In this document: in pieces, positions 5,364-53,478 of the stretch | Position numbering within the stretch: position 1 is the first letter of the stretch | How the letters are laid out: each line of letters starts with the position of its first letter | Origin: a virus | Lineage: Duplodnaviria > Caudoviricetes | Length of the DNA stretch: 64,000 bases | Reading direction: 5' to 3' (one strand) | Virus record (IMG/VR): IMGVR_UViG_3300037258_000283 | Coordinates: 2,046 to 66,045 of that record | Notes under the pieces: model-generated | The model's database searches: none | The model's input: only the letters and a program-made list of their open reading frames with translations | What the model was told of the DNA's origin: nothing | Translations under genes and position numbers: made by a program

Positions 5364-7583
5364 TCAGTCGTGCCACGGGAAGTCGTCACAGCGAGTGACG
5401 ACGGGCGACGCCACCCGCGCCGGGGGTCCGAACGGATCGTCCGGCATTATGTCCGTTTTGGGGTCAGGCAGGGCAGGCAGATCAGGCAGAGCTGGACCTA
5501 CCCTCCCCATATCCTTATTTCTAGCCCCATCTGACCTCTCACCTGCTTTTATTTCCCCGACCGGTATGGGGAGGGATTTTATATATGGGCAGGGTAGCTC
5601 CAACTCTGCCTGCTCTGCCTGCCGATCAAGGCCCGATTCTTCCCAGTCCGCCATGATCCTTACGTTCACGGCACGGGACTTCGTTGCCTCGTTGCGAACC
5701 TCCGTCACGCCATTGACGCTGGTCAGACGACCGATGAACTTCTGTCGGCCCATCGCTGACGCTTTCTGCTCCTCCGCCCAGGCAGAGAACGAGGCGTACA
5801 GTTCGATCTTGGAGGCAACTTTGCCTGCGGGCAGATACGAGCCTGCCTGCGCCGGGGTCACTTCGCACCGCTCCGAGAGCCACTGGCGGACCCTGTCGGA
5901 GCGCGTCTCGAAGGTCTGAAGCACCTCCGGTCGTGTCTCTGCGTAACCGCCCCGGGCATTCCGACGCCTCCAGGCGGCCACCCAGCGGACCAGGATGCCG
6001 GGCAGCTCCCCCATGATCGCGTCCTCCACCGCCGGGTCCTCGTGCCCCGCGAAGCTGTAGGGGAACTCGAACGGCTTGATCCGCTCCATGTACGCGCGGG
6101 ACGACTCGCCCACCGTCGGCAGCTCGTTCGCGCTGAAGGCGAACAGCGCCTGGTTGGTGAAGCTGAACTGGCCGCCGTACTTGCGGTCCGCCATGATCAG
6201 GTCTTCGCCGGTCAGCATCTTGAAGATCGACAGGTCTTCCACGTGCGCGCTGGACAGGTCGGCCGCCGCGTTCAGGATCTTGCCGTACACGTTGGCCGCC
6301 GCGAACCGGTTCCCCACCAGCTGGTGCAGGCTCACCGATGAGCAGTTCCCCAGTCCGGCCACGGCCTGGAGGATGCGCAGCAGGGTGGACTTCCCCGAGC
6401 GCGACGGCCCGAAGGCGAACAGTGCCTTGGCGGGCGTGCGTCCGGGGTCCAGCATCGTGGACACGACCTCTTCCAGGTCATCGACCTGTGCCGGGCACAC
6501 GGCCGCCAGCCAGGCTTCGTAGGCCGGGCACAGGGCCGCGCCGTCCCCCCAGCACACCGGCAGCTGGACCGAGGACAGGTGCTCAGGGCCGTGCGGCCCC
6601 AGCGTCCCGGTGGCCAGGTCCAGCATCCCGTCCGCCAGGTTCAGCAGCCCGGGAGCGCCGCGCTCGGGGAGCACCTTGCCGGCCCGGTGCAGGATGCCGA
6701 ACATCACTTCCTCGATCGCGGCCCGGGACGCCGGCCGGTGCTGTTCCTCCAGCAGCGCGGACGTGGCCGTGATCATGGCCGATCCGTCGATCCGGTACAC
6801 GCCGTCCTGGTACAGAGCGATCTTCCGCTCCGCCGTGATGGCCGCCGGCTGCTTCGCCAGGATCGCCTTCGCGGCCTTCAGTGCCAGCAGCGACCCCTTC
6901 TCGAAGTACGGGCTGGAGGACGTGCGCGAGGGTGCCTTGGGCCACACCGTGGACGCCTGGGTCAGCCAGCGGTCCAGGAACCGGCCGCGCTTCTCCTGCG
7001 GCAGCCGGGCCAGTTCGTCGTCCACCCCGCGCTTGCCCAGCGCGCTGGTGACCACCAGGTGCACGCTCCGCGCGCCGTTGCGCTCCAGCGCGTCCCGCAG
7101 GTCCGACAGGCCGTCGTAGACGTGCCGGTTGCTGGTCACGTCCCCGTCGAAGAGCAGGTAGACCTCACGTTCCTCCACCCAGTCCAGCGGCAGACCGGAC
7201 CAGGCCCAGCAGCCGGCCACGCCGTAGACCGCGTAGTGCTCCGGAGCGTGGCTCAGTACCGCGTACTGCTGCTTGGTCCCCTCCACGACCACCACCGGGC
7301 CGGCCGGATCGTCGTCGCGCAGCCGGTTGAACGGGAGCTGCGCGCCCTTCGGCGACTCGTACTTGATCGGCTCACCGTCCCTGCCCCGGCGCGGTACGTC
7401 GGGCCGCAGCTGGGGCACGCCGTCCTCCGCGCCCGGACCGCGCCACGGGAAGATGATCCCCGGCGGCCTGCCGCCGTTGCGGCTGCACACGCCACTCGCG
7501 TCCAGCACCTCCGGCGTGATCGCGAAGCGGAGCAGGTAGTCCCGGTGCTCAGGCAGCAGCGTGCCGTCGGCAGCCTCCGTCAT
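5364..7583 (-). CDS. DNA primase-helicase (TOPRIM-like plus D5/P4-type SF3 helicase)
   Basis: VVVEGTK...LFDGD TOPRIM-like; LLNLADGMLDL; Walker A GPSRSGKST; FKMLTGEDLI; FSANELP. Confidence 0.9.
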   Translation of the reverse strand: MTEAADGTLLPEHRDYLLRFAITPEVLDASGVCSRNGGRPPGIIFPWRGPGAEDGVPQLRPDVPRRGRDGEPIKYESPKGAQLPFNRLRDDDPAGPVVVVEGTKQQYAVLSHAPEHYAVYGVAGCWAWSGLPLDWVEEREVYLLFDGDVTSNRHVYDGLSDLRDALERNGARSVHLVVTSALGKRGVDDELARLPQEKRGRFLDRWLTQASTVWPKAPSRTSSSPYFEKGSLLALKAAKAILAKQPAAITAERKIALYQDGVYRIDGSAMITATSALLEEQHRPASRAAIEEVMFGILHRAGKVLPERGAPGLLNLADGMLDLATGTLGPHGPEHLSSVQLPVCWGDGAALCPAYEAWLAAVCPAQVDDLEEVVSTMLDPGRTPAKALFAFGPSRSGKSTLLRILQAVAGLGNCSSVSLHQLVGNRFAAANVYGKILNAAADLSSAHVEDLSIFKMLTGEDLIMADRKYGGQFSFTNQALFAFSANELPTVGESSRAYMERIKPFEFPYSFAGHEDPAVEDAIMGELPGILVRWVAAWRRRNARGGYAETRPEVLQTFETRSDRVRQWLSERCEVTPAQAGSYLPAGKVASKIELYASFSAWAEEQKASAMGRQKFIGRLTSVNGVTEVRNEATKSRAVNVRIMADWEESGLDRQAEQAELELPCPYIKSLPIPVGEIKAGERSDGARNKDMGRVGPALPDLPALPDPKTDIMPDDPFGPPARVASPVVTRCDDFPWHD
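5467..5622. repeat. GGCAG/CTGCC repeats flanking an AT-richer core (candidate origin)
   Basis: ggcagggcaggcagatcaggcag at ~5467-5490 and ctctgcctgctctgcctgcc at ~5603-5622, around ttatttct/tttatttcc/ttttatatat. Confidence 0.45.
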
Positions 7584-8971: not shown

Positions 8972-9426
8972 TGGACGCCGACGATGTGGAGCGCTTGACC
9001 GGGCTGGAGCTGGAGCCGTACCAGCGGATGGTCATCAGCGACGCGGTGGTGTCGGTCGATGGCGTGGAGCTGCCCGATTACACCACCTGGGCGATCACGA
9101 CGACTGTGCCCGACTTCTGTGCACGGTTCTTCCAGAACAGCGGTCCGGATGTCCTGGGGTCGTACAGGGTCATTGACGAATGGATGGTCACCGGGCCGCC
9201 GGACGTGAAGGAGGCCGTCTGCGACACGCCTCCGGCGGATGCCCTGGAGGCCGTTCTGCGGGCCGGTGAGCCGCTGCCCCGGCAGACGGTCCACCTGCCA
9301 GTGGAACCGACGGAGGCCAACGGCTGGAACGCCTGGTGGTGCCCCGACTGCCGGACCGACTGTGCCGCGTCCGACCCCTGCGGCTGCTGCACCGGAAACG
9401 GTCCCGAAGACGCGATCCCTGACTGA
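8971..9426 (+). CDS. hypothetical protein with C-terminal Cys cluster
   Basis: WWCPDCRTDC...PCGCC. Confidence 0.6.
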   Translation: MDADDVERLTGLELEPYQRMVISDAVVSVDGVELPDYTTWAITTTVPDFCARFFQNSGPDVLGSYRVIDEWMVTGPPDVKEAVCDTPPADALEAVLRAGEPLPRQTVHLPVEPTEANGWNAWWCPDCRTDCAASDPCGCCTGNGPEDAIPD

Positions 9427-9444
9427 CCCAGGAACGAGGAACCG

Positions 9445-11151
9445 ATGACGCACGACATGCTCCCGCTCAGGCCGTTCCAGCGTGAGGCGCTGGACGCTGT
9501 GGTGAAGGCACACGCGAGCGGCATGCGCCGTCCCGCTGTCGTGCTCCCAACGGGCTCGGGCAAGACCTTTTTGTTCTCCCACCTGGCCGCTGAGCACCAC
9601 GCGGCTACCGGGCAGCGGACGCTCATCCTCACCCACCGTGACGAACTGGCAACTCAGGCAATGGCGGAAATCAGGGGTGTTGCCCCGCACCTGTCTGTCG
9701 GCAAGGTGAAAGCGGAAGACAATGACGTGGACGCGGAGGTGGTCGTTGCCTCCGTGCAGACCGTCAGCCGGACCGAACGGCTCGCTGCGCTGCTGCGCTC
9801 CCAGGCAGGTGGGGAACCGTTCGGCCTGGTGATCCATGACGAATGCCATCACAGTGCCTCACCCAGCTGGGTACGGATCACCGATGCGTTCCCGGACGCC
9901 GGTCATGTCGGTGTCACCGCGACGCTGGCCCGGGGCGACGGCATCGGCCTGGGGTCGGTCTGGGAGGACGTGGTATACACCAAGTCGATCAAGTGGATGA
10001 TCTCCCGGGGCTATCTGGTCCAGCCCCGGGGGGTGTCCGTGAAGACGGACCTGGACCTGGGCAGTGTCCGCACGGCGGCCGGTGACTACCGGGCCGGGGA
10101 TCTCGGTAGCGCGATCCAGGACGCGGGTATCCCTGCGGTCATCGCGGGCGCGGTCCGGGAGCACGCGGCCGGCCGGCGCACGATGGTCTTTCTGCCGACG
10201 GTGGCCGCCGCTCACGAGACCGCTGCCGCGATGGAGTGTCTGGGGATCGCTACCGCCGTGGTGGAGGGAGCGACGCCTACTGGGGAACGGGCGCGGGCGT
10301 ACGAGCAGTTCCGCACCGGTCGTGTCCAGGCCCTGGTCAACTGCATGGTCCTGACCGAGGGCTTCAACGCCCCGTGGGCGGACTGCATCGTCGTCGCCCG
10401 CCCCACCCGGTCCGGTCCGCTCTATCAGCAGATCGTCGGACGCGGGCTGCGGACCTGGCCCGGAAAGACCGACTGCCTGGTACTGGACCTGGTGGGCGCG
10501 TCCACAGACAACAAGCTGGTCACCCTGATAGATCTCGAAGAGGGCATGTTCCCGGGCCGCAAGCCCTGCCGGGAGTGCTGGCGCACCCCGTGCGTCTGCC
10601 CCTGCGGGACCTGCGGAGGACCGCGCCCGTGCCCGGACTGCCGCGCGGAGCAGCCCGGCATCGTCCTGACCGGCACGGGGGAGGAAGTGGACCTGTTCGC
10701 CGCGTCGCACTCCGTGTGGCTGCGCACCCGTACAGGGATCATGTTCATCCCGACCGGGGACAGTGACGTCCTGCTCTGGCCGCGCCGCGACGGTGCCTGG
10801 GACGTGGCGGAGGCGCGGACCGAAGCGGCGGCCGGCACCGGCAGGCGCGCCGCCCGCATGGTCCGGCTGCACGCCGCGCTCCCGATGGAGACGGCCATGG
10901 CCTGGTGCGAATCCGAGGCGGAGGACCGGGGCAGTGCGGAGGCGCTGGGCTACCGCGCCGGGCACCGCGACGCCACCTGGCGCAAGCGCAGGGCCGCCGC
11001 CACCCCGGAGCAGCTGGCCCGCTGCACCCGGCTGCGGATCACCGTCCCCGGCGGCGCGACCAAGGCACAGGTGTCCGACCTGCTGTCGGTGGACGCCGCC
11101 AGCCGCCGGATCGACCCGTTCGTCATCCGCGCCGGGCTGGCAACGTCATGA
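9445..11151 (+). CDS. SF2 DExH-box helicase
   Basis: LRPFQ, PTGSGKT, DECHH, TAT, LTEGFN, QIVGRGLR; Cys-rich insertion. Confidence 0.93.
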   Translation: MTHDMLPLRPFQREALDAVVKAHASGMRRPAVVLPTGSGKTFLFSHLAAEHHAATGQRTLILTHRDELATQAMAEIRGVAPHLSVGKVKAEDNDVDAEVVVASVQTVSRTERLAALLRSQAGGEPFGLVIHDECHHSASPSWVRITDAFPDAGHVGVTATLARGDGIGLGSVWEDVVYTKSIKWMISRGYLVQPRGVSVKTDLDLGSVRTAAGDYRAGDLGSAIQDAGIPAVIAGAVREHAAGRRTMVFLPTVAAAHETAAAMECLGIATAVVEGATPTGERARAYEQFRTGRVQALVNCMVLTEGFNAPWADCIVVARPTRSGPLYQQIVGRGLRTWPGKTDCLVLDLVGASTDNKLVTLIDLEEGMFPGRKPCRECWRTPCVCPCGTCGGPRPCPDCRAEQPGIVLTGTGEEVDLFAASHSVWLRTRTGIMFIPTGDSDVLLWPRRDGAWDVAEARTEAAAGTGRRAARMVRLHAALPMETAMAWCESEAEDRGSAEALGYRAGHRDATWRKRRAAATPEQLARCTRLRITVPGGATKAQVSDLLSVDAASRRIDPFVIRAGLATS

Positions 11152-11516
11152 TCCCCGACGCTGACGCACAGCGCCGGGAGGCCGACAACTCCGCGCTGCG
11201 CGGCGGCCACCGGGCTGACGCCTGCCCGCGCCGGGTGTCGGTGGAGACCTACGGGGACGCCGGGCATCCGCACTGGTGGCACGGCGACTGCCAGTCCCCG
11301 GGAGCAGACCCGGCCAAGAGTGCCGGTGCCCCGACCGACCGACCGACCCCGCGTGAGGCACGGCTGCTGTCCCAGGCTTTCGAGACCTTCGCGGCGGCTC
11401 TGAACCGCCGCTCCGACACCATGACCGGCCGCAGGATGCCGCAGGCCGCGCACGCACTGAGCCAGGCGGCGGACGCCGCGCTGGAGACCGCTGATGTGTA
11501 CCGGAGGATGACGTAG
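11148..11516 (+). CDS. hypothetical protein
   Basis: ATGA overlap with the helicase stop. Confidence 0.5.
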   Translation: MIPDADAQRREADNSALRGGHRADACPRRVSVETYGDAGHPHWWHGDCQSPGADPAKSAGAPTDRPTPREARLLSQAFETFAAALNRRSDTMTGRRMPQAAHALSQAADAALETADVYRRMT

Positions 11517-13798
11517 TGACCCAGGAACCGAGGACGACCGGCACATGCCGCGAGTGCGGCAAGGAGGACATCACCCTGACATCGTGGGGAGCTGTCCGCG
11601 TTCATGGTCCCCGAGATGAACGCTGCGAGGGCAGCGGGAAGCTGCCGGACACCGGGGACGACGACGTGTCGAAATTCTGTGTCCTCTGCCGGAGCGGCGA
11701 ACATGATCGCACGGCTCACGCCTCGCCGGAGGCCGATGCTGCCCGCGCCCGGATCGCGGCCGGACCGTCCGCCGGACCCAATCCGTACCGGCCGCCGCTG
11801 TCCACGGAGCAGCCGTTCTACTGCGGCGTGTGCATCGGCTGCGGCAGGGACGCCCGTCCCGGGGGCCTGGGGTGCACCGAGTGCACGGAGCAGTACGGGG
11901 AGGAACAGCTTCGCGCCTGGAATGATGACGTACCCGTAGGGCCGCTGCCCACGGAGCAGCCGTCCTGGGACGGCGTTGATCCCTGGCACAACGACCCGCC
12001 GACGGAACGCGACGTCCGGGACGCTGAACGCGTGCTGATGTCCGGAGCACCGGACGACGTCCTGAGCGCCGCCTACGGTGTGCTGGACGATGCGCAGGCC
12101 CGGGGCACCTACCCCGCCGCCTCCGCGCCTGCGGACCCCGGTCCGGAGGAAGAGGACCCGTTCGCCTCCCCGGCGGCCGTGGTGCCCGACAGGGGGCCGT
12201 GGTTCGCGTCCCGCTACGACGGGGACTGTGACGGCTGCGGGGCCGACTTCGGCGAGGGCGACGACATCCGCGCCGACGGCTCCGGCGGCTGGGAGGCGAA
12301 GGACTGCTGCGGGGAGGACGCCGCGCCGGCGCGGGAGGACGTGCCGCGCCGGATCACCCCGAAGGTCCCGCTGAACGGCAACCACCGCTACGTCATGCCG
12401 CATCCGCAGAACCCGCGCAAGCAGTGGACCGCCCAGCGGGTGACCACGTTCACGAAGCTCGCCAGCGAGACCTTCGCGCTGGAGCAGTGGGCGTTGCGGA
12501 ACGTGGCCGTCGGCATGGCCGTGGACCCGTCCCTGGTGACCCGGATCAGGGCCATGCTGGAGGAGGCCCCGGACGGCGACGGTCCGGCGGAGCTGGTGTC
12601 CAAGCGGCGTCCAGCGATCGAAGCCGTGGTCACCGACGCCAAGACGGCCGCCGGGGACAAGGACAGGGCGCGCAAGGGCACCCGGAGCCACAAGCTGGCC
12701 GAAGAGCTGGACGCCGGTCACCGGACCCTGGACCAGGTGCCGCCGGAGTACCGCGCCGACCTGGCGGTGTACCTAGAGGCATGCCAGGCAGCCGGGTACA
12801 CCATGCTGTCCCACCTGATCGAGCGGACCACGGGGTCGGTGGCGTACGGGGTCATGGGCACGTTCGACCGGGTGGTCCGCTGCCCTGACGGCCTGTACCG
12901 GGTGTTCGACCAGAAGACGGGAAAGATCCGGTACGGGCAGAAGGAGATTGCCGCGCAGCTGGCCTGCTACGTGACCGGCTGCAACGAGACCGGTATTGCG
13001 CAGCACGACGGAATCGGCGACCCGAAGGACTGGGAGTCGTGGCGCTGGGTGCCGCTGACCGATGATCAGGGCCGTCCGATCACCGTGGAGACCGACTACG
13101 GGATCGTGGCCCACGTCCCCTACGGCCAGGGTGAGTGCACGCTGTACCCGGTGCCGCTGGACGTCGGCCGTGAGGCGATGAACCGCTGCCGGGACAACCG
13201 CGAGTGGCAGAAGTCGGACGCCTGCTTCGGCTCGCCGATCCCGGTGCCCGCGCTGGACGACGTGCCCGATCCCGGGGAGCTGCCCGGCTCCGTGCCGGAG
13301 CTGGTCAGCGCCGGATACGACAAGGCCACGGTTGCCGCCACGGTCGCCGGGGACACGCTGGACGTCGGCCGCCCGGCTGAGCCGTTCTGGGAGCACACCG
13401 AGTGGGTGCGCCGGTTCAGCGGCGTGGCCGCGTCCGCCGACGCCCGCGCCCTGTACTTGGAGTACGCGGCCGACCCGCACCACGACCCGCAGACGCTGGC
13501 GGAGCTGGCGGCCCTGGCGACGGCGGCACTGGCCCGGGCGAAGGCGGCTGCGGCCCGGCCGCAGGCCCCGGAGCCGGCAAAGGCCCCGTTCGTGCCCGTG
13601 GAGCCGGTGGAACTCCCCTGGACCGACGCCGGTGCCGCGCTGCCGACCTGGGAGCAGCGGTTCGGCTCGGTGACCACGAAGGCCGGAGCCCGGGAGCTGT
13701 ACCTGGAGTACACGGCCGCGCAGGACGGCGGCTCCCCGGGCGGGCACCTGGACGCGCTGGTGCGGATCGCGAACGCCGCTCTGGCCCGGCGCGCTTGA
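11516..13798 (+). CDS. PD-(D/E)xK (Cas4/RecB-like) exonuclease with N-terminal Zn-finger motifs
   Basis: RVTTF...LEQW, GTRSH, GTFDRVV...DQKTG, QLACY; several CxxC pairs; duplicated C-terminal motif. Confidence 0.75.
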   Translation: MTQEPRTTGTCRECGKEDITLTSWGAVRVHGPRDERCEGSGKLPDTGDDDVSKFCVLCRSGEHDRTAHASPEADAARARIAAGPSAGPNPYRPPLSTEQPFYCGVCIGCGRDARPGGLGCTECTEQYGEEQLRAWNDDVPVGPLPTEQPSWDGVDPWHNDPPTERDVRDAERVLMSGAPDDVLSAAYGVLDDAQARGTYPAASAPADPGPEEEDPFASPAAVVPDRGPWFASRYDGDCDGCGADFGEGDDIRADGSGGWEAKDCCGEDAAPAREDVPRRITPKVPLNGNHRYVMPHPQNPRKQWTAQRVTTFTKLASETFALEQWALRNVAVGMAVDPSLVTRIRAMLEEAPDGDGPAELVSKRRPAIEAVVTDAKTAAGDKDRARKGTRSHKLAEELDAGHRTLDQVPPEYRADLAVYLEACQAAGYTMLSHLIERTTGSVAYGVMGTFDRVVRCPDGLYRVFDQKTGKIRYGQKEIAAQLACYVTGCNETGIAQHDGIGDPKDWESWRWVPLTDDQGRPITVETDYGIVAHVPYGQGECTLYPVPLDVGREAMNRCRDNREWQKSDACFGSPIPVPALDDVPDPGELPGSVPELVSAGYDKATVAATVAGDTLDVGRPAEPFWEHTEWVRRFSGVAASADARALYLEYAADPHHDPQTLAELAALATAALARAKAAAARPQAPEPAKAPFVPVEPVELPWTDAGAALPTWEQRFGSVTTKAGARELYLEYTAAQDGGSPGGHLDALVRIANAALARRA

Positions 13799-13822
13799 CT
13801 TCGTCGTACCTACAGGTACGAT
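13795..13822 (+). promoter_or_regulatory. sigma70/HrdB-like promoter with overlapping palindrome
   Basis: TTGACT-16 nt-TACGAT; inverted repeat CGTACCT-AC-AGGTACG spans the spacer and -10. Confidence 0.5.
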
Positions 13823-14012
13823 TAAGGCGCGTACTGCTGAACGGCCGACGTCCCGCGCTCCCGCCGGAGAAGATCCGGGACGTCGGCCCCAGAATCGGGA
13901 GCCGTCCGGTCTCGTACACCGGAACGGTTCCGGCGGAGCCCGCGCCCTGTCCTTCGGGGCACGGTCTCCGCATCCCCGTACCCGACACGATCACGGAAAC
14001 GGAAACGACCCC

Positions 14013-14540
14013 ATGAGCACACCGTTCGACAGCGACGACGACCCGTTCAACGACGGCCCCGACGACAGCGACCCGTTCGACTCCCCGGCGGAGATCCCCA
14101 GCGAGTTCCCCAAGTTCGATGACCACCTGCGGGGGAGGCTGCTGCTGATCAAGCCCACCAAGCTGGAACAGGGTCTCGTCTCCACCACCCTGCCGAAGAA
14201 CTCCGACGGCACCCCCGTGGTCCAGGACCGCATCACCGCCGACGTCTACGTGCTGGACGGCGCGCCGCTGGCCGACTTCGCCGGTGCAACCGCGTTCCCC
14301 GGCCTGTACATCAGCCAGTCCCGGGTGGTGGTCCAGCTGAGCAACGTAGCCCAGCTGGGTGCCAAGACCCGCCAGACCATGGTCCTGGGACGGCTGAACA
14401 CCCGCTACGCGCAGGGGAAGCCCAACCCGACGGCGAAGGAGCGCAAGGCCGGACCCGGCAACCCGTGGGGTCTGGAGGACCCGACCGACGCCGACAAGGC
14501 CACGGCCCGCGCCTACCTGAAGGCGAACGGCATCGCCTGA
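14013..14540 (+). CDS. acidic hypothetical protein, possible ssDNA-binding/recombination factor
   Basis: Acidic N-terminus; LLLIKP...DRITADVYVLDG...PW.LEDPT.AD...ARAY; follows the exonuclease. Confidence 0.6.
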   Translation: MSTPFDSDDDPFNDGPDDSDPFDSPAEIPSEFPKFDDHLRGRLLLIKPTKLEQGLVSTTLPKNSDGTPVVQDRITADVYVLDGAPLADFAGATAFPGLYISQSRVVVQLSNVAQLGAKTRQTMVLGRLNTRYAQGKPNPTAKERKAGPGNPWGLEDPTDADKATARAYLKANGIA

Positions 14541-14553
14541 CCCGCACCGAGAC

Positions 14554-14587
14554 GCCCCCGGACGCCGACCTGGCTCCGGGGGCTTTT
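14554..14587 (+). terminator. intrinsic terminator
   Basis: GCCCCCGGA...TCCGGGGGC stem followed by TTTT. Confidence 0.65.
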
Positions 14588-14606
14588 CCGCAGAGAGGAC
14601 TGAGAC

Positions 14607-14942
14607 ATGACCGAGACGCGCAGACGGTACGGCCGTCCCCGTCCCCCGCAGGTCGTCACCCGGGACGCGGAGGCACTCAGCGTGCTCCGGGACGCCGGGA
14701 CGGCCGGACTGTCCCGCAACGAGGTGGCGGGACGCCTGGGTGTCGCACCCCGGCTGGCCAGCTACGCACTGCACCGCCTGCGGCGTCTCGGCATCGTCCG
14801 GCACGTCCCGCGCGGCAACGAGGGACACGGCTACTGGGCCGTGTCCGGGACGAAGAGCGAGACGCACAGCGGGACCGGGACACCGACCGGGACGAAGAGC
14901 GAGACACCCACCGAGACACAGGAAGCAGGCAGCGGGACATGA
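14607..14942 (+). CDS. winged-HTH DNA-binding protein
   Basis: ALSVLRDAGTAGLSRNEVAGRLGV...ASYALHRLRRLGIV. Confidence 0.75.
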   Translation: MTETRRRYGRPRPPQVVTRDAEALSVLRDAGTAGLSRNEVAGRLGVAPRLASYALHRLRRLGIVRHVPRGNEGHGYWAVSGTKSETHSGTGTPTGTKSETPTETQEAGSGT

Positions 14943-15442
14943 TCGAGGACCCGAGCTACATCCCCGGCGTGACGCCGGTGCAGTACCCCGAGCCCGGTGC
15001 CACGGGCACCTGGACCCAGGACGCCCTCCCCGGTACCGGGCCGGCGGACACGATGGCGGCGCTGCGGGAGCACGTACGGGACCTGGGGTCACGCCTCCAA
15101 CCCGGCCTGGTGATCCTGCGGCAGGCCGGGATCGTCCCGCCGGAGGACGGCCTGACGGCGGGGGACGTCCTGGACCGGGCCTGCGACTGGCTCCGCCAGC
15201 CCCACCCCGACCTGAGCGCGGCGGAGTACGGCGACCTGTCCGAGATCCTGTACACGCCGGTCCTCCCCGTGGAGGACCCGGACCCGGAGCTGGTGGCCCT
15301 GGCCCGTGTGGTGGCCGAGGACTACGCCGGCGCGCGGACCGTGGTGGAGGCCATGTCCCGCCGGGACCGGGCCGTCCTCGGGTTCTACCTGACGGAGCTG
15401 GGACACGTCCTGGACGCCGTGGACGCGGCCGACCACCGGTGA
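14939..15442 (+). CDS. hypothetical protein
   Basis: MIEDPSY...; ATGA coupling. Confidence 0.6.
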   Translation: MIEDPSYIPGVTPVQYPEPGATGTWTQDALPGTGPADTMAALREHVRDLGSRLQPGLVILRQAGIVPPEDGLTAGDVLDRACDWLRQPHPDLSAAEYGDLSEILYTPVLPVEDPDPELVALARVVAEDYAGARTVVEAMSRRDRAVLGFYLTELGHVLDAVDAADHR

Positions 15443-15627
15443 GCGTCCCGTTCCGCCGGGCACTGGCGCTGATGGCGTTCTCCGCTCTGCTGAACGGGCA
15501 CCCGGTGTATGCCGCTCGGCAAGTAGAGATCATGACGATGACCGAGCGGGACACCCTGTCCCGCTTCCTGGAGGAGTTCCGGGACATGGTCACCGAGACG
15601 GGACGCGTCTCGGCAACCGGGAACTGA
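15439..15627 (+). CDS. hypothetical protein
   Basis: GTGA overlap; shares the M(S/T).R.R..L..(Y/F)L.E motif with the upstream gene's C-terminus. Confidence 0.5.
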   Translation: MSVPFRRALALMAFSALLNGHPVYAARQVEIMTMTERDTLSRFLEEFRDMVTETGRVSATGN

Positions 15628-15756
15628 GACGCACCGCTGAGACGAGACGCACCACCGAGACGCACCACTGAGACGAGACGCACCACTGAGACGAGACGCA
15701 CCACTGAGACGCACCACTGAGACGCACCACCGAGACGAGATGGGAGACGAGACGCA
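15626..15756 (+). repeat. GAGACGCA direct-repeat array (candidate clt)
   Basis: 8 copies of GAGACGCA, 7 of them as 13-mers GAGACGCACC(A/G)C(T/C), with interspersed GAGAC. Confidence 0.85.
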
Positions 15757-16808
15757 TGGACCGAGACATGAAGCGGGACACCGAACCGGGTGAGACGGAC
15801 CGGGTGAGACGGACGGTCGCCACGGTCGGTCTGGTTGTCCCGACGCTGATGGCCCTGGGGATGTCCGCTGATACCTCGTTCCGGTTCCTCGGAGCTGTGC
15901 TGGGGATCGTGGACCCTGCGGAGCGCGGTGTCCTGACGGGCACTGCGGAGGCCGCTGTCATTGCCCTGACCCTGTACGCCTGGGCCACGTCCACCCGGCT
16001 GGCCGCGCGGATCGCGTACCTGGTCGTCCTGGTGCAGGCCGTACCCGCGTTCGAGGTGTCCGGCGGCTATGGCGGCATGGTCCGCACAGCCCTGGGGCCG
16101 GTCCTGCTGGTCGTGCTGCTGCACCTACTGCTGGGCCTGGAGCTACGGATGTCCCGGGTGCGCCCGTCCGGCATCGTCGCTGACATCCTGCGGGAGGCCC
16201 GAGAGCGTCTGGTCGCCTACCTGGGCATCGGTCGGCGCGGCACCGACTCCGCCGCCATTGCGCGCAGCCGTGCTGCGGACCGGGCCGTGGTCCTGGCCGA
16301 TCGGGTGGCGGAAGCTCCGGAGAAGAGCCGGAAACGTTCCAGGCGTTCCGCCCGGCTGTCCGCCGCAGTCGATGCGGCCCGGCACGGCCTGGACGCATCG
16401 GACGCGCGGGCGATGGAGGCGGCCATCGTCGCCCGGGTCGTGCGCCGCAAGTCGGTGGACGGCCTCGCTGGGATCAGTATCGAGTACGACTGGGCGGGGA
16501 CGGTCACCGAGACGGTGTCCGGGACACCGGGACGCGTTGAGACGTCTCCGAAACCCGTCTCGCGTGTGTCTCGCCCGGCCCTGGCTGTCCCGTCTCGTGA
16601 GACGGCTCCCGGTGGGACGGAACTCCTCACCACGGTGGAGGCCGCCGCCCTGGCGTCCCAGCTCCGGGGCGAGACGGTCACCGCCGCAGTTATTCGCAAC
16701 TGGAAATGGAGGAGTCGTCTCATCCCCGCGACCGACGTGGACGGGACGCTGTACGAGCGAGACGCGGTCGTGGCCGCAGAACTGAAGACGCGACGCGTCT
16801 CGCCCTGA
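15756..16808 (+). CDS. Spd-like multi-TM plasmid transfer/spread protein with C-terminal HTH
   Basis: About four TM helices, Arg/Ala-rich helical region, C-terminal LLTTVEAAALA...AAVIRNWKWRSRL. Confidence 0.65.
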   Translation: MDRDMKRDTEPGETDRVRRTVATVGLVVPTLMALGMSADTSFRFLGAVLGIVDPAERGVLTGTAEAAVIALTLYAWATSTRLAARIAYLVVLVQAVPAFEVSGGYGGMVRTALGPVLLVVLLHLLLGLELRMSRVRPSGIVADILREARERLVAYLGIGRRGTDSAAIARSRAADRAVVLADRVAEAPEKSRKRSRRSARLSAAVDAARHGLDASDARAMEAAIVARVVRRKSVDGLAGISIEYDWAGTVTETVSGTPGRVETSPKPVSRVSRPALAVPSRETAPGGTELLTTVEAAALASQLRGETVTAAVIRNWKWRSRLIPATDVDGTLYERDAVVAAELKTRRVSP

Positions 16809-16884
16809 GACGAGACGTCCCCGCGTCTCACCCCGAGGCGCGGGACACCGACCGAGACGCAACGACCGAGGAAGCGAGACGCAC

Positions 16885-17358
16885 ATGAGCGGGACGGACA
16901 GGCACTGGGTGGGGAACAACGACTTCGCCGCATGGGTCAAGAACATGGAGAGCACGGAGGTGCGCAGCGCGGACGACCTCCACGCGTACTGCGAGCAGGG
17001 ACGCGGGGCGTCGCAGTACGTCTCGGTGGTCCAGGACCAGTTCGCGGCGGACCTGAGGATCATGTTCCGGGACGCGGACCGCAGCCCGGACCCGAAGACC
17101 GCTGCGGAGAACGCGGAGATCGGGTTCGACCCGCACTACGACCGCCGGTTCCGGGGCGTCGTGCGGGAGATGGCGAAGGTGTCCGACGCCTACGAGGCCG
17201 CCGCGAAGCACCTGTTCGCGGCCTGGCTGAAGTTCGAGAAGGCGGCCGTCCAGATGGACTCCGACCGGAAGGAGGCCGTGGCCAAGCACCGTGCGACGGC
17301 CAAGCAGTCCGCGCCGGCGGCCACGGGGTCCGCGAGGGGGTTCAAGTTCAGTGGCTGA
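16885..17358 (+). CDS. TraA-like plasmid transfer protein
   Basis: 157 aa helical protein directly upstream of and overlapping traB; S.DDLHAYC pattern resembles Streptomyces TraA. Confidence 0.55.
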   Translation: MSGTDRHWVGNNDFAAWVKNMESTEVRSADDLHAYCEQGRGASQYVSVVQDQFAADLRIMFRDADRSPDPKTAAENAEIGFDPHYDRRFRGVVREMAKVSDAYEAAAKHLFAAWLKFEKAAVQMDSDRKEAVAKHRATAKQSAPAATGSARGFKFSG

Positions 17359-19390
17359 GACCAAGGAAGAGACGGCAGGGGAGCGCCGGGCGGCTCCCCG
17401 CCGTCCGTCCGCCAAGAGCCGGAAGGACGTCACGACCGGCCCCCTGACCAGCTACCTTGTGCCGCTGGCCCTGTGCACCGGCACGATGCCGCTGGCGGTC
17501 GTGCTCCACCTGGTGTGGGGCACGTCCATGCTCATGGTCGCGCTGCTGGGGGCGCTGACGGCGCTGCTGCCGCTGTACGTGCACACCACCTGGCACAAGC
17601 GCCACGAGCACACCCGGATCACCGCGTCCGTCTTCACCCTGGTGGTGTGCGTCTGGCTGACGGTGGCCGTGGCCGCCGGGCCGTTCGGGACCGATGTCCT
17701 GGACCTGTGGGGGCTCGGCGTCCTGGTCATGCCCCTGGCCTGGGTGCTGCGGCACACCGGGCTGTCCGGGGGCACCGAGCACGACGTCTCCCGCAGCGGG
17801 GCGGACACCATGCTGGCGCGCCTGCGCACGGTCCTGTCCGGGCTGCGGGAGCACAAGGTGGTCACCGGGAGCAGCGGCACGGAGGTGAGTGCGGAGTACG
17901 CCTACCCGGCCGGGGAGATGACGGCCGCCGATGTCCAGGCGGCCCTTCCCAACATCGCCAGTGCCCTGGAGCTGCCCGCCTCCGCCGTGTCCGTCGTCCC
18001 GGTCACGGGGCCGGGCAACCGGGTCCGGATCACCGCACAGGCCGCCGACCCGCTGGCCGGGAGCCCGCTGACCTGGCCCGGCTTCTCTGCGCGGGGCACG
18101 TCGGTGAACGACTCGCCGCTCCGGTTCGGCCGCCGGTCGGACGGCCGCGACGAAGGTCTCTGGGTCTGCGGCGATCCGGCGAAGGACCGCCAGCTGGTGC
18201 ACACCATGGGGGTCGGCATGCCGGGTTCCGGCAAGTCGGACACCGGCGTGGCGATCATCCTGGACGGCCTGTCCCGGGTGGACTTCGTGCCGGTCGTGGC
18301 GTCCTCGGTGAAGTTCGCGCAGACGTACGGGGACATCGCCGAAGCCCTGCCGGTAGCGGCTGACGGGCCGGAGCAGACGTTCCAGCTGATCGCCAACTTC
18401 CCTGCGGTGATCGCCTACCGCTCCCAGCTGATCGGGTCGCTCCGCAAGGCCGACGGCAGCCAGTTCAAGCAGTGGGAGCCGGAGCTGTGGACCGAGCACG
18501 GCATCCCGCTGGTGTTCGTCGTCCTGGACGAAGCCGCCTCAGTGACGCACGGGAATGAGGACTTCAACGAGGGCGTGCGCGTGCTGCGCAGCCTGGGGGT
18601 GCACTTGCTGGTGGAGATTCAGTCGGCAATCGGCACCTCCATCGACCGGAACATCCGCGACATGATCGGCCAGCGGCTGGCGCACGGCTGCATGAGTGAC
18701 ATCGACACCGGGTTCGCCCTGCACGACAGCACCGTCGCGGCCGGTGCCGACCCGACCAAGTGGGGCGCGAACAAGGCCGGGGCGCACTACGCGGAGCTGA
18801 CCGGCGTCCCGGCCGACCAGTGGCACCTGGAGTGCCGCAGTTTCCGCACCGACGCGCCGGGGCTGCGCAGCCGGGTGCTGGCGGAGACGAAGGGCAGCCG
18901 GGCCGTGCTGGACCCGGGCACCGCGTTCCACCTGGGGAACGGGATCAAGCGCCCGGACTGCTGCCTTCCGTCGGTCCCCGACGTGGTGACCGCCGTCCTG
19001 GAGCAGGCCGGGGACACGGACACCGTCCGCTACCTGGCCGACATGCCCGCCGACGACCTCCCGGAAGCGGACCCGGAGTACGCGGACGTGGACGCCTCCG
19101 AGCCCATCCCGTACACGCTCCCGGCCGGGACACCGGTCCCGGTCCGGGCTGTGCAGCCGGCCGGACCGGCGTCCCCGGCTGCCGCGCGGGAGGCGTTCGA
19201 GCGTCGGTTCGAGGAACTGGCGGCGGAGCGCAGCACGGTCACGGCGGCCGACTTCGCGGAGGTCCGCTACGCCGTCGGCCGTTCCCGGAACTGGCCGCTG
19301 TGGGAGTTGAAGCGGCTGGAGGAGCGGGGGCTGGTGAAGCAGGAAGAGCCCGGGAGCAAGACCTGGAACGTCCGCCAACGGGCCGCGTGA
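17351..19390 (+). CDS. traB: TraB FtsK/SpoIIIE-like conjugative dsDNA translocase
   Basis: N-terminal TM helices; Walker A GMPGSGKS; Walker B VVLDEAA; GADPTKWG; C-terminal wHTH GRSRNWPLWELKRLEERG. Confidence 0.82.
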   Translation: MAETKEETAGERRAAPRRPSAKSRKDVTTGPLTSYLVPLALCTGTMPLAVVLHLVWGTSMLMVALLGALTALLPLYVHTTWHKRHEHTRITASVFTLVVCVWLTVAVAAGPFGTDVLDLWGLGVLVMPLAWVLRHTGLSGGTEHDVSRSGADTMLARLRTVLSGLREHKVVTGSSGTEVSAEYAYPAGEMTAADVQAALPNIASALELPASAVSVVPVTGPGNRVRITAQAADPLAGSPLTWPGFSARGTSVNDSPLRFGRRSDGRDEGLWVCGDPAKDRQLVHTMGVGMPGSGKSDTGVAIILDGLSRVDFVPVVASSVKFAQTYGDIAEALPVAADGPEQTFQLIANFPAVIAYRSQLIGSLRKADGSQFKQWEPELWTEHGIPLVFVVLDEAASVTHGNEDFNEGVRVLRSLGVHLLVEIQSAIGTSIDRNIRDMIGQRLAHGCMSDIDTGFALHDSTVAAGADPTKWGANKAGAHYAELTGVPADQWHLECRSFRTDAPGLRSRVLAETKGSRAVLDPGTAFHLGNGIKRPDCCLPSVPDVVTAVLEQAGDTDTVRYLADMPADDLPEADPEYADVDASEPIPYTLPAGTPVPVRAVQPAGPASPAAAREAFERRFEELAAERSTVTAADFAEVRYAVGRSRNWPLWELKRLEERGLVKQEEPGSKTWNVRQRAA

Positions 19391-19460
19391 CGGTCGCCGT
19401 ACGGTGGGACACGGGCCTTCCGGTCCGTGTCCTGCCGTGTGCCGACCGGCACATACCCGC

Positions 19461-19547
19461 CTGTCAGAAGCTGTGACAGCCGCCCGACAGCGGCTGACAA
19501 CAGTGGTCACAACAGGACTGACAACAGCTCCTGTCGGGCCTCTGACC
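19461..19547 (+). repeat. (T/C)GACA(AC)AG repeats downstream of traB (second candidate clt)
   Basis: tgacagc, cgacagc, tgacaacag, tcacaacag, tgacaacag, flanked by inverted ctgtca/ctgtcg. Confidence 0.55.
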
Positions 19548-19619
19548 TTAAGTACTCATCAGAACTGTCCGTGCCTGACGTCAGCCGGGCGTCAGCTCCA
19601 CCGGAAAGGACCCGCAACC

Positions 19620-19856
19620 ATGATCCGAACTGTGGTGGCCACCGTGCACGTGGCCATGATCGCTGCTCTCCTGCTCATCCTCGGTGCCGCCATGAGCCCG
19701 TCCGCGCGCGGCGTGGGAATCCTCGGGTACGCCGTCATGGCGCTGTGCGCCGTGCTGGCCGACGTCATGATCACCTGGCCGCTGGCCGGCGGCACCCGCG
19801 CCGCCGTCCGGGTGCCGCTGAAGCTGGCCGTGCGCCGGCTCCGGAGGCGGAAGTGA
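19620..19856 (+). CDS. small membrane protein (Spd-like)
   Basis: Two hydrophobic helices, basic tail, GAAAGGA RBS. Confidence 0.65.
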   Translation: MIRTVVATVHVAMIAALLLILGAAMSPSARGVGILGYAVMALCAVLADVMITWPLAGGTRAAVRVPLKLAVRRLRRRK

Positions 19857-19963
19857 GCCGCCGGTGGGGGCAGCGCCATCCCACCCGCTGGCCGCTGCTC
19901 ATCTGGTCGGTGGGCGGCACGCTGATCGCGCTGGCGCAGATATGGATGTGGACCCGTGGCTGA
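19853..19963 (+). CDS. small membrane protein
   Basis: GTGA coupling; one TM helix. Confidence 0.45.
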   Translation: MSRRWGQRHPTRWPLLIWSVGGTLIALAQIWMWTRG

Positions 19964-20402
19964 CCGCGAACCCCTGCACGGGGTGATAGTCCGCGCGGCG
20001 GACCGGCCGCTCGAGCGTTTCGGTACCGACGGCTGGCCGGTCGGGCGGCCGATGGTCGTGGAGGTGCACCACTACCATCCCCCGGAGCCGGTGGCCGCCT
20101 CCCCTCCCGCGCGCGAGGATGAGGGGTGGGACCTGCTCCGGCGGCTGACTCCGTACTTCGTGATCGCGCTGCTGGCGATCGTGTTCCTGGGCAGCCTGGC
20201 GGGGGTGCTGCTGATACTGATCCCGCCGTTCATGGCGCTGGTGGCGACGCTGATGGCGTCGCTGGTGACCATCGCGGCCTGTGCCGTGGCGCTGGTCGTG
20301 GCGCTGGTCCTGTTCAGCGCCGTGATCGGCCGGATGCTGCACACCGGCCGCCGTGACCGGACGCTGGAGAAGCTGGCCGCGAACCAGGCCCCGCGCCCGT
20401 AG
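19956..20402 (+). CDS. membrane protein (Spd-like)
   Basis: VVEVHHYHPP motif followed by a ~60-aa hydrophobic stretch. Confidence 0.65.
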   Translation: MADREPLHGVIVRAADRPLERFGTDGWPVGRPMVVEVHHYHPPEPVAASPPAREDEGWDLLRRLTPYFVIALLAIVFLGSLAGVLLILIPPFMALVATLMASLVTIAACAVALVVALVLFSAVIGRMLHTGRRDRTLEKLAANQAPRP

Positions 20403-20410
20403 GAAGTCTC

Positions 20411-20443
20411 CGGCCCCGCATCCGTCCCCCGGGTGCGGGGCCG
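20411..20443 (+). terminator. GC-rich hairpin, probable terminator
   Basis: CGGCCCCGCATCCG...CGGGTGCGGGGCCG just after the stop; no U-tract. Confidence 0.55.
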
Positions 20444-20503
20444 CTGCATGTCCGCAGGTCGGAGCGGCGGGGGACCGGTCGCAAGAATCTTGCCGGAACC
20501 CCC

Positions 20504-20532
20504 TTGACGGGGGGCAGGAGAGGTGACATATT
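20504..20532 (+). promoter_or_regulatory. sigma70/HrdB-like promoter
   Basis: TTGACG-17 nt-CATATT with extended TG. Confidence 0.55.
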
Positions 20533-20539
20533 CGTATCA

Positions 20540-20760
20540 GCAAGGACGAACGAAGCACAACAACTGAACAAGGTGCCGGTGCCAGACCACCGGACATCCC
20601 AGAGATAAGGCCCCCGGAAAGGCTAAGGCTGGGAGGGACGGGAGAAGCCAGCGAACCTGGTCGGCGTCCACGAGTGAACAAGCCCCGCATACGTGATCAC
20701 GACGTACGCAGCGAACGCAACGCGGGGCACGCGAGAACGACCATCGCCCGAGTGAGGGAG
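20540..20760 (+). ncRNA. candidate structured leader or ncRNA
   Basis: A-rich 5' part then nested stems (ccggt/accgg, tcccag/ctggga, ccag/ctgg, gccccgc/gcggggc). Confidence 0.35.
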
Positions 20761-20766
20761 CACCCC

Positions 20767-21189
20767 ATGAAGCAGGACGCAGGACCGGCGTTGGAGGCCA
20801 AGGCGCGCAAGGGCGACTTGATCCTGATCGAGACCGTGACGCGCAACTCCTACTCGGTAGCAGCCCGTATGGAGGCGAAGGCCGCCGGACGGGAACTGTC
20901 CCAGGAGGACACCACGTACACCTTCGGCGTGGTCGCCTCAGCGACCCGTGAGGGGTACGTCAAGTCCTGGTCATCCGTCGGGTACGGGGACGAACTAGTC
21001 AGCACGTACGCCATGCCGATCGGAACGAAGGAGCGGCGCTGGGTGGTGGGCCAGAAGGACATAGACGTTCCCGCAGCCATGAAGGCCGCGAAAGCGCACC
21101 ACTGGGACGGTCACCCGGGGCAGCCCCAGCCGTTCGATTCCCTCAAAGAGGCGACTGATACTGTCCGCCCGTTCCGGATCACCCACTGA
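20767..21189 (+). CDS. hypothetical protein
   Basis: ATG with GAGGGAG RBS; KARKGDLILIE... Confidence 0.7.
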   Translation: MKQDAGPALEAKARKGDLILIETVTRNSYSVAARMEAKAAGRELSQEDTTYTFGVVASATREGYVKSWSSVGYGDELVSTYAMPIGTKERRWVVGQKDIDVPAAMKAAKAHHWDGHPGQPQPFDSLKEATDTVRPFRITH

Positions 21190-21309
21190 CCCACCAGCCC
21201 GGCCGGAGTTCACCGCTCCGACCGGGCACTGCGACCGCAGCAGGCGCACCCCGTAGTCAACCGGCCCGGCCTGCTGCGGTCGTCACCACCGACCCAGGAA
21301 AGAGGAATC

Positions 21310-21474
21310 ATGATGACCACGGTCCGGACCGCGAAGCGCTACAAGGTCCGCTTCGACCCGTTCACGGACGCCCCCGGCGTCATCGACCTGCGGACCGGCC
21401 GCTTTGTCCGGCACTCGGGGGACGACCGCCGGGTGCGGCAGCTCCGCGCCCGGCTGGAGAGGACTGGCCGATGA
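21310..21474 (+). CDS. small basic hypothetical protein
   Basis: Manual ORF following AGGAAAGAGGAATC. Confidence 0.6.
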   Translation: MMTTVRTAKRYKVRFDPFTDAPGVIDLRTGRFVRHSGDDRRVRQLRARLERTGR

Positions 21475-21635
21475 TCTCCGTTGCCGTCATGATCGGGATC
21501 GCCGTGGCCTGCGGGCTGCGGTTCCTGTACCTGGTCTGGCTCAAGCGCCGGACCGCAGACGTCCTGTGGACTACCGCCACGGGCATCGGAGCCGTGCTGC
21601 TGGCGCTCCGCTTCCTGCACGAGATGCACCGCTGA
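21471..21635 (+). CDS. small membrane protein
   Basis: Manual ORF MISVAVMIGIAVACG...; two TM helices. Confidence 0.55.
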   Translation: MISVAVMIGIAVACGLRFLYLVWLKRRTADVLWTTATGIGAVLLALRFLHEMHR

Positions 21636-21672
21636 TCCAGGAACCGCACCACCGGCCCAGGAACGAGGAACC

Positions 21673-21909
21673 GTGTCCGTGTACCCGTACACCGTGATCA
21701 AGAACGTGGCCACGCTGCCGTCCGCTCCCGTCTTCGGGGAGCTGGCCGACCACCTGGGCGACTGCCCGCAGTGCTACGGCGCGTCCGGTCCGCAGCACGC
21801 GGACCCGGGCAGCGACGACACAGCCGGGCTGTGCCCCGACGGCGCGGCCGTCGTGACCGCGTTCCGCTGGGACGTGGCCGCCATGGCACAGACGGCCGCC
21901 TGGAACTGA
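21673..21909 (+). CDS. Cys/His hypothetical protein (paralog of 26771-27001)
   Basis: DHLxxCPxC...LCxxG...WN. Confidence 0.65.
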   Translation: MSVYPYTVIKNVATLPSAPVFGELADHLGDCPQCYGASGPQHADPGSDDTAGLCPDGAAVVTAFRWDVAAMAQTAAWN

Positions 21910-21912
21910 GCG

Positions 21913-21966
21913 CAGCATGGCGGAGCGCGGGTACCTCCCGCGCTCCGGCCACGGGTGCTCAGCCCG
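21913..21966 (+). ncRNA. 54-nt structured intergenic element, copy 1
   Basis: Flanks identical to 27585-27638; central hairpin differs in sequence. Confidence 0.6.
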
Positions 21967-21988
21967 ATCACTGATCGAGAGGAACGAC

Positions 21989-22264
21989 ATGACTGAGCCC
22001 GCTACCACCCCCGTCAGTATCCCCGACGCCAAGCAGCGCATCGCGTTCACCGGCGACGGCCGGCACTGGCACGGCACCGTCACCCGCCACACGACACGCC
22101 CCGACGGCAGCCCCCGCCTCCACGTAGACGTGGACCCCGGCAGCAGCGGCATCAGCTCCGTGGCGTACCGGCTCGGCGATCACTTCCGCCTCACCCGTCA
22201 GGGCGAGATCTGCCCCGACTGCGGCGAGCCCGACCGTGGCCTGCCGATGTACAGCCGCCCCTGA
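21989..22264 (+). CDS. hypothetical protein
   Basis: GAGG RBS; C-terminal CPDCG. Confidence 0.6.
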   Translation: MTEPATTPVSIPDAKQRIAFTGDGRHWHGTVTRHTTRPDGSPRLHVDVDPGSSGISSVAYRLGDHFRLTRQGEICPDCGEPDRGLPMYSRP

Positions 22265-46449: not shown

Positions 46450-46463
46450 GGCGTACCCTCCGA

Positions 46464-53477: not shown

Positions 53478-53478
53478 G

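Follow-up and report, generated by a model that had tools for sequence, protein, structure and literature searches.

A two-part field of GAGACG words in a transfer module of a phage-like genome, and a membrane protein as its candidate reader

What reads a tandem array of short DNA words that runs up to the start codon of a membrane-protein gene? The array lies in a plasmid-type transfer module, and the module lies in the genome of a phage-like element. The window that we analyzed is 64 kb of a single 66,045-base record of class viral (CheckV completeness 77%), and the array consists of eight direct copies of GAGACGCA before the gene at 15756-16808. The original prediction took the array to be a clt locus, that is, a loading site for the TraB homolog of the same module, or alternatively a set of sites for one of two nearby helix-turn-helix proteins. 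From sequence comparisons, and with modest confidence, we favor the view that the array consists of docking sites for the neighboring membrane-anchored protein (15756-16808), which would hold the element's DNA at the membrane beside TraA and TraB. The array, the related word clusters, and the gene are:

15626..15756 (131 bp), + strand: array of eight direct copies of GAGACGCA, starting at 15626, 15644, 15657, 15675, 15693, 15706, 15719, and 15749.
14549..14617, + strand: minor word cluster, three forward copies of GAGAC around the start codon of the gene at 14607.
15595..15815, + strand: upstream word cluster, 17 forward copies and 1 reverse copy of GAGAC, running from the intergenic gap into the first codons of the membrane-protein gene.
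16501..16885, both strands: downstream word cluster, 9 forward and 7 reverse copies of GAGAC, spread over the 3' part of the membrane-protein gene and the 76 bp that separate it from the next gene.
15756..16808, + strand: gene for a 350-amino-acid membrane protein with a predicted C-terminal DNA-binding domain, the proposed reader of the words (from hydropathy and models).

The eight copies lie at the positions that had been reported for them, and the last (15749-15756) shares its final base with the start codon at 15756 (the A of ATG). The window as a whole contains 11 copies of GAGACGCA, all on the + strand. Among 100 shuffles that preserve dinucleotide composition, the mean was 3.48 copies and the maximum was 10, and none reached 11. 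Tandem Repeats Finder reports periods of 13 and 18 for the array, whose unit is GAGACGCACCACT with or without an additional GAGAC. The upstream cluster also contains a likely ribosome-binding site (GGGAG), and the downstream cluster includes two more copies of GAGACGCA, at 16854 and 16876.

A count of GAGAC by strand, as the original prediction proposed, found no enrichment across the whole window (156 copies, with 190 expected) and a strong concentration in 14549-16885, which has 32 forward and 9 reverse copies where the rest of the window predicts 4.4. For GAGACG, this zone has 28 forward and 8 reverse copies, or 36 in all, compared to 2.05 expected from the rest of the window (Poisson P ~6e-32, a post hoc value as the limits of the zone were picked after inspection). 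Further copies of GAGAC or GAGACG had been noticed near 14550-14920 and 16500-16885, and these are found in sub-clusters, with no copies of GAGAC in 14943-15594 or in 15816-16500. Inverted copies, which had been placed after about 16540, begin at 16544.

The words were also said to shape the coding sequence, giving peptides rich in ET and VS, and this holds up. The coding copies use all three frames and both strands and encode ET, RD, VR, VS, SR, and RL; within the membrane-protein gene, they begin at the linker. In the genes of the zone, ET is encoded by GAGAC[G/A] in 10/10 cases, compared to 10/20 cases in 22 other open frames (Fisher p 0.011). Given this bias in ET codons, and given that the word is found outside coding DNA as well as in every frame and on either strand, it appears to be under selection at the level of DNA.

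Two other explanations for the words were considered and dropped. We dropped a structured RNA because there was no Rfam match at E ≤ 1 within 13800-20000 and because the array RNA is not structured (folding z of +1.48, less well folded than 190 of 200 shuffles). GAGACG is the reverse of a type IIS enzyme site, but the relatives of this element have unrelated words at the equivalent places, so we dropped a restriction site as well.

Those relatives were not easy to find. Scans of genome contigs and viral contigs with single proteins identified no close relatives, and an alignment-based scan was required. A protein search found 27 TraB relatives (36-48% identity), and scanning with their alignment identified 6 loci from genomes (four Streptomyces and two Yinghuangia) and 30 from viral contigs. 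Five rows were dropped: L001 (the same plasmid as L020), L026 and L031 (identical in contig range to L004 and L005), L022 (a near-duplicate of L021), and L032 (no upstream DNA). The comparison set is 33 non-redundant TraB loci, including the window.

The 3 kb before traB are strongly enriched for a single short word in 31 of the 33 loci, and different elements have different words. The word is NGGACA in 23 loci, GAGACG in 4 (the window, L009, L010, and L028), CGA(A/G)AGC in 2, GCTCAG in 1, and TCCGGA in 1. For instance, L004 has 57 copies of GGGACA in these 3 kb and 11 in its other 18 kb; the corresponding counts are 67 and 20 for CGGACA in L014, and 37 and 6 for GAGACG in the window. Each element has two clusters of its word: one just before the counterpart of the gene at 15756-16808, and another in the linker-coding 3' part of that gene and after it. 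The conserved part of the gene that encodes the membrane domain lies between the two clusters and lacks the word. A similar layout is found in two small Streptomyces plasmids (17 and 18 kb) that encode a homolog of the membrane protein. Here the words are CGCGAC (35 vs. 15 copies) and CGGAAC (32 vs. 11 copies), and the gene tables of these plasmids list no phage gene.

In two of the GAGACG elements, there is a second word, GCAACG/TGCAAC, beside GAGACG (at ~8300-9450 in L009 and at ~8130-8230 in L028). In L028, the two words share one 24-bp array unit, CCCCGAGACGCTGCAACGG. The window's array instead carries on as GAGACGCACCAC.

This broader distribution bears on whether the words need a dedicated reader at all. 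Slippage can extend tandem arrays, and the words could also be a by-product of a low-complexity linker. Or, they could be a phage pac site that is read by a small-terminase-like domain: the element has phage structural genes, and the membrane protein's tail has small-terminase DNA-binding domains among its fold matches (see below). However, dispersed copies of the word also lie outside of tandem arrays, in either orientation, in every reading frame, and in non-coding DNA. Also, the layout is present in 31/33 loci despite their differing words, and in two plasmids without an annotated phage gene, and the array RNA is unstructured with no match in Rfam. We consider explanations of this kind to be improbable.

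If there is a reader, then the word should be compared with the candidate proteins across the loci. The C-terminal tail of the membrane protein occurs in several unrelated forms, and in 30 of 31 loci there is a one-to-one match between the class of the word and that of the tail: NGGACA with an "SxxKAIxR" helix (23 loci), GAGACG with an Xis-like domain (4 loci), CGARAGC with a third domain (2 loci), and GCTCAG with a fourth domain (1 locus). The original prediction had included sites for the protein at 15756 as an alternative, and this correspondence favors it.

Natural swaps are, in our view, the most telling part of the comparison, and they point to the tail. On the TraB tree, L023 and L020 (CGARAGC) fall among the GGGACA elements, and they differ from their nearest TraB kin in both the tail and the word. 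The TraB helix of L023 is identical to that of L005 (PRGWVYGELEQL), but their membrane-protein tails differ. Similarly, L010 (GAGACG) and L027 (GCTCAG) have near-identical TraB helices and different tails. Conversely, the window and L010 share the same word and the Xis-like tail: hhalign aligns the tail alone (probability 98.3%), and the membrane domains do not align.

We used Mantel tests across the 33 loci to compare the similarity of the enriched 6-mer profiles to the similarity of four protein parts, along with a joint rank regression:

Membrane protein tail: Mantel r 0.68; joint coefficient 0.575.
TraB core: Mantel r 0.50; joint coefficient 0.31.
TraB winged helix: Mantel r 0.42; joint coefficient -0.05.
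Membrane domain: Mantel r 0.20; joint coefficient 0.02.

Permutation gives significance for all four correlations, as a result of shared ancestry. The word class switches at least 7 times on a quick TraB tree. Of the independent contrasts, 4 fall on well-supported branches; the tail class is concordant in 3.5 of these on average and is never opposite. The direction of the evidence for the tail as the reader is clear, and its formal strength is moderate.

The same comparisons bear on the clt reading, for which these two features are needed:

17351..19390, + strand: TraB homolog, 679 amino acids (the open frame begins at 17291), with the helix RSRNWPLWEL at 19280-19309.
19391..19620, no strand assigned: non-coding stretch of 230 bp directly after traB, with CTGAC/GTCAG-type repeats.

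As described in two articles (PMC4447253, PMC3583192), clt loci are clusters of short direct repeats that are read by TraB, which agrees with the original prediction's account of clustered 8-bp direct repeats and helix 3 of the TraB winged helix. Eight copies of GAGACGCA within 131 bp, inside the transfer module and 1.6 kb before traB, would suit such a locus, and the word profile does correlate with the TraB winged helix when this is taken alone. But a new TraB specificity, pairing the array with the helix RSRNWPLWEL, is not borne out. The four GAGACG elements have four different TraB helices (NWPLWELKRL, NWVYDELHRL, AWGYDQLTRL, and QWLYKQLGLL), while the like helices of L005 and L023, or of L010 and L027, go with unrelated words. 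Once the tail is allowed for, nothing is added by the TraB winged helix. The array's position before traB is also away from the 3' end of traB, where pJV1 and pWTY27 have clt. Finally, in one of the two small plasmids, similar arrays lie beside an ATPase gene that is annotated as DUF87-domain; TraB is not annotated there, and no TraB search was made. We think it unlikely that the array is clt.

Most of the loci, including the window, have another small repeat cluster directly 3' of the traB stop codon. In the window, 19391-19620 contains 7 copies of CTGAC/GTCAG, compared to 0.61 expected, and includes CTGACAACAG (twice) and CTGTCAGA. In 16/33 loci, the four most enriched 6-mers after traB include CTGACA/TGTCAG, and other loci have TGATCAG, GTGATCAC, TGTCACGG, or GTGCGCAC. 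The similarity of these post-traB clusters correlates with the TraB core (r 0.37) and the TraB winged helix (r 0.28), and not significantly with the membrane-protein tail (r 0.10); the link is weak, and in a joint regression the winged helix adds nothing beyond the core. The nine CCGCACA repeats of pJV1 are directly after its traB stop codon, and they are cited as its clt repeats in PMC3583192, where the clt of pWTY27 is described as the end of the tra gene plus the adjoining 159 bp. Because the clt loci of pJV1 and pWTY27 are at the 3' end of the tra gene, 19391-19620 would, by position, be a better candidate for clt than the array is.

By eye, we noticed additional small proteins, encoded in two of the loci, with C-terminal ends similar to the TraB winged helix (GR..W...L..LE..G). 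These are at 6582-6842 and 7272-7736 in L005 and at 6317-6643 in L023.

The other helix-turn-helix protein that had been suggested as a reader is encoded upstream of the array:

14607..14942, + strand: gene for a predicted 111-amino-acid winged-helix protein (Pfam HTH_91, E 9.5e-5, under the cut-off).

A few of the words flank the start codon of this gene, and others are in the part that encodes its low-complexity tail (TKSET...), via GAGAC at 14859, 14901, and 14913. However, the recognition helix of this type of protein (S.TYLSLDRLR type) is near-constant across the GGGACA, CGARAGC, CGGACA, and AGGACA elements. And across the 23 loci with an orthologue, its correlation with the word profile is just 0.32, compared to 0.68 for the membrane-protein tail in the same loci. 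It is very improbable that this protein is the reader.

This brings us back to the membrane protein, whose C-terminal part has two features that matter here:

16452..16616, + strand: linker, residues 233-287, predicted to be disordered (predicted local distance difference test, pLDDT, < 50), overprinted by forward and inverted copies of GAGACG.
16623..16799, + strand: predicted MerR/Xis-type winged helix, residues 290-348 (from a model of the 75-residue tail).

The protein has three segments with a hydropathy of at least 1.6, and hydropathy and the model together suggest 3-4 membrane helices. In the full-length model, which is of low confidence, four long N-terminal helices are followed by a helical middle part, the linker, and a folded tail. 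When the 75 residues of the tail are modeled alone, the mean pLDDT is 75.6, and the order of elements is strand-helix-helix-strand-strand-helix (E14-17, H18-29, H35-43, E49-51, E57-59, H60-72). When the tail was compared to known structures with VIA-align, nearly all of the 50 listed rows were MerR, Xis, BldC, RacA, RdfS, a plasmid partition protein, or small-terminase DNA-binding domains, with root mean square deviations of 1.5-3 over 48-60 residues. The tail is likely to be a MerR/Xis-type winged helix, judging from these models. Annotation adds little: one search gave 190 relatives of the protein at E ≤ 0.001, nearly all of them named hypothetical, there was no NCBIfam family at E ≤ 0.1, and a search of PDB sequences with the tail profile gave spurious matches to repeat proteins only.

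The membrane domain is 60-66% identical to those of L004, L005, and others, whose TraB proteins are only ~35% identical to the window's. Given this difference, the gene seems either to have been exchanged between modules or to evolve far more slowly than traB.

Several points weigh against the membrane protein as the reader. Some of them concern its structure. The membrane part of the full-length model has pLDDT values of 50-65, and the predicted template modeling score of the model is 0.29. We infer the topology, and thus the cytoplasmic location of the tail, from hydropathy and charge only. With the tail model, Foldseek found no match at E ≤ 0.001 (probability up to 0.99), and its top rows (CbpM, MerR regulators, BldC, Xis, and RacA) all have E > 0.001. 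The VIA-align Z scores are modest, at 4.5-6.6 and always below 8. And no Pfam helix-turn-helix family (HTH_17, MerR) was found in the tail at E ≤ 5. Other points concern the comparison. The enrichment method found no word in L006 or L007, and three of the 23 NGGACA assignments (L008, L033, and L034) are weak. The exception to the correspondence between word and tail is L019, which has TCCGGA-type words with an "SxxKAIxR"-like tail; its words in the 3 kb before traB are GATCCGGA and GACCCGGA, with nine copies of each in the locus, and the latter is probably the word recognized by TraB of pSVH1, a point in favor of the clt reading. The second word in L009 and L028 may mean that the reader needs more than the short core, or that there is a second reader. 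The word and domain classes were defined by us, partly by eye, on the same loci that were tested. Also, these loci are related, and with 4 independent contrasts a sign test gives p 0.125-0.25, so that significance is out of reach.

If the membrane protein is the reader, then the GAGACGCA array would be one half, the upstream one, of a two-part field of some 36 sites of the form (C/T)GAGACG(C), which flanks and partly overprints the gene at 15756-16808. The words would most likely be read by the MerR/Xis-type winged helix at the C-terminus of the protein, which would be cytoplasmic and on a flexible linker. With many membrane-anchored copies on tandem sites, that part of the phage-plasmid's DNA would be fastened to the membrane near TraA and TraB. 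On the direct repeats, the tails might form head-to-tail multimers, as Xis and BldC do. This could serve to hand the DNA over to the pump, to spread it between hyphal compartments through cross-walls, or to keep its inheritance stable. In short, the sequences show the array, its enrichment in this zone, the two clusters that recur in relatives, and the agreement between word and tail classes; we infer that the protein binds these words, how it does so, that it tethers the DNA, and what this is for.

The ribosome-binding site and the start codon of the gene both lie within the array, which therefore likely controls the expression of that gene as well. One could go further and suppose that the words are nothing but an operator array, with the protein acting as a membrane-bound transcription factor without a role in tethering or transfer. 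Besides the position of the array, which finishes on the start codon, it fits with this that MerR and BldC, which are relatives of the fold, are regulators. But roughly half of the sites are within or after the gene instead of at a promoter, and the 50-76 copies of GGACA over 2.4 kb in relatives are well beyond what an operator needs. A consensus scan found no sigma-70-type promoter-like site, although such a scan says little for a high-G+C actinomycete. An operator array alone is a doubtful explanation, and we continue to favor docking sites with self-regulation as an additional effect.

More tentatively, we speculate that the words and the membrane protein form a modular "address" system, not described before, in the TraB-type transfer modules of actinomycete plasmids and phage-plasmids. 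The protein would be a membrane-anchored adaptor with an exchangeable DNA-reading tail, there would be tens of tail-specific words around and within the adaptor's gene, and the adaptor, not the TraB winged helix alone, would select DNA for the pump. If so, exchanging a tail and its words as a unit would give rise to new specificities of transfer or incompatibility, in this case within the genome of a tailed phage.

It is useful to compare these proposals to known systems. Like the window's array, the clt loci of pSVH1, pJV1, and pWTY27 are clusters of short direct repeats in the transfer module that are specific to the element, and their reader is a winged helix at the end of a membrane-anchored protein, as the window's reader would be. 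Unlike with clt, the window's word follows the tail of another membrane protein instead of the TraB helix, is present in tens of copies, and has two clusters that overprint a gene. SpdA2 of pIJ101 is a DNA-binding protein that is associated with transfer and stability, and its sites (sps) are within its own gene and shape its own peptide (SRDD/E), a precedent for what we propose in the window; deleting SpdA2 had only mild effects on stability (PMC4170104). SpdA proteins have 117-163 amino acids, with no membrane domain mentioned in the available text, whereas the window's protein has predicted transmembrane helices; and the SpdA target is a 12-bp palindrome in 1-3 copies that is conserved across plasmids, whereas the window's word is element-specific and in tens of copies (PMC4170104). 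SpdB2 of pSVH1 is an integral membrane spread protein that binds double-stranded DNA, according to the title of Tiffert et al. 2007 (via PMC4447253), and it interacts with TraB (PMC4447253). The 15756 protein, with its predicted membrane helices, is encoded beside traA and traB and would share the DNA binding. In open-access text, we found no report of sequence-specific sites for SpdB2. A membrane protein of similar build from pJV1 (L040, 666-1781) has no profile similarity to the 15756 protein.

Another set of comparisons comes from the predicted fold of the tail. BldC, Xis, and RdfS share this modeled fold with the window's protein and bind tandem direct repeats, as the window's protein would. 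They are small soluble proteins, while the window's domain is attached to a membrane protein by a disordered linker and its words have a spacing of 13/18 bp and a GC-rich core. RacA, which is among the fold matches, also has a MerR-like winged helix. It binds many clustered ram sites, fastens DNA to the cell envelope, and anchors the chromosome; it differs from the 15756 protein in that it reaches the membrane via a partner protein and binds inverted repeats as a dimer. In PMC5859096, RacA is described as an architectural, non-transcriptional MerR-like DNA-binding protein, and BldC and its kind are described as binding direct repeats as head-to-tail multimers. For the plasmid-phage pZL12, transfer requires a tra gene and two neighboring genes, as described in PMC3583192.

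In the open-access literature, we found the TraR repeats, clt/TraB, SpdA2/sps, SpdB2, and pZL12, but no account of a membrane protein whose DNA-reading tails are exchangeable and whose gene is surrounded by arrays of the matching words.

Streptomyces-type conjugation is thought to require little beyond TraB and clt, and it is not well understood what the accompanying membrane "spread" proteins do. If our proposal is true, then a widespread protein that has so far been named hypothetical would have a concrete and testable role, in bringing DNA to the membrane or holding it there, and its specificity would be predictable from sequence. Nor does nearness to traB suffice for annotating a repeat array as clt. 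Also, the presence of this module in a phage-like genome bears on the movement of phage-plasmids between hyphae.

The module, which is entirely on the + strand, sits between the window's replication genes and its structural genes. The order of the genes is an exonuclease-like gene (phrog_466), a gene for a 175-amino-acid protein, the winged-helix gene at 14607, two small genes, the array, the gene at 15756-16808, a TraA-like gene, and traB. The remaining feature of the module is:

16885..17358, + strand: TraA-like gene, a weak match (NF041213, E 3.4e-4, 20.7 bits compared to a cut-off of 80) at the equivalent position to that in the relatives.

The product of 17351-19390 appears clearly to be a homolog of TraB, yet it is not an equivalog by the curated cut-off: it matches positions 8-628 of the 639 of NF041214 at E 1.8e-88, with 297.6 bits, which is under the 800-bit cut-off. 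It also matches phrog_24831 (E 6e-47), and it has the GSGKS motif and the invariant columns in the alignment of relatives. The closest plasmid TraB, at 33.6% identity, is from the linear plasmid pS1D4-14.2; the same record is among the viral contigs as L020. We found no relatives of TraB in the deposited-phage collection (tblastn with the window's TraB), and megablast gave no match for 14000-19500 against plasmids or for 9000-22000 against phages. A consensus scan for terminators, which is a weak guide in a high-G+C actinomycete, found one terminator-like site (17388-17373, minus strand), compared to a mean of 1.0 in shuffles.

Outside of the module, the window has phage-like genes for a family A DNA polymerase, a D5-type primase, a helicase, a GH25 lysin, a protease-capsid protein, and a portal protein. 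An HK97 capsid family was found in 0/5 of the records of L020, L009, L010, L028, and L005. The window's portal protein was found in 0/5 of the records of L020, L009, L010, L028, and L014, and a portal family was found weakly, under the cut-off, in 2/5. These searches suggest that the replication and transfer part is common to the relatives and the window, and that the structural module is not demonstrably so.

Two of the window's other genes, both on the minus strand, have unusual domain content. Among the presumed tail genes, a 1691-amino-acid open frame at 41404-46479 has an intein splicing domain together with a LAGLIDADG endonuclease (Pfam E 3e-11 and 6e-8). At 50646-53651, a prohead protease (Peptidase_S78), two DUF6582 stretches, and an HK97-type capsid domain are fused in one open frame of 1001 amino acids.

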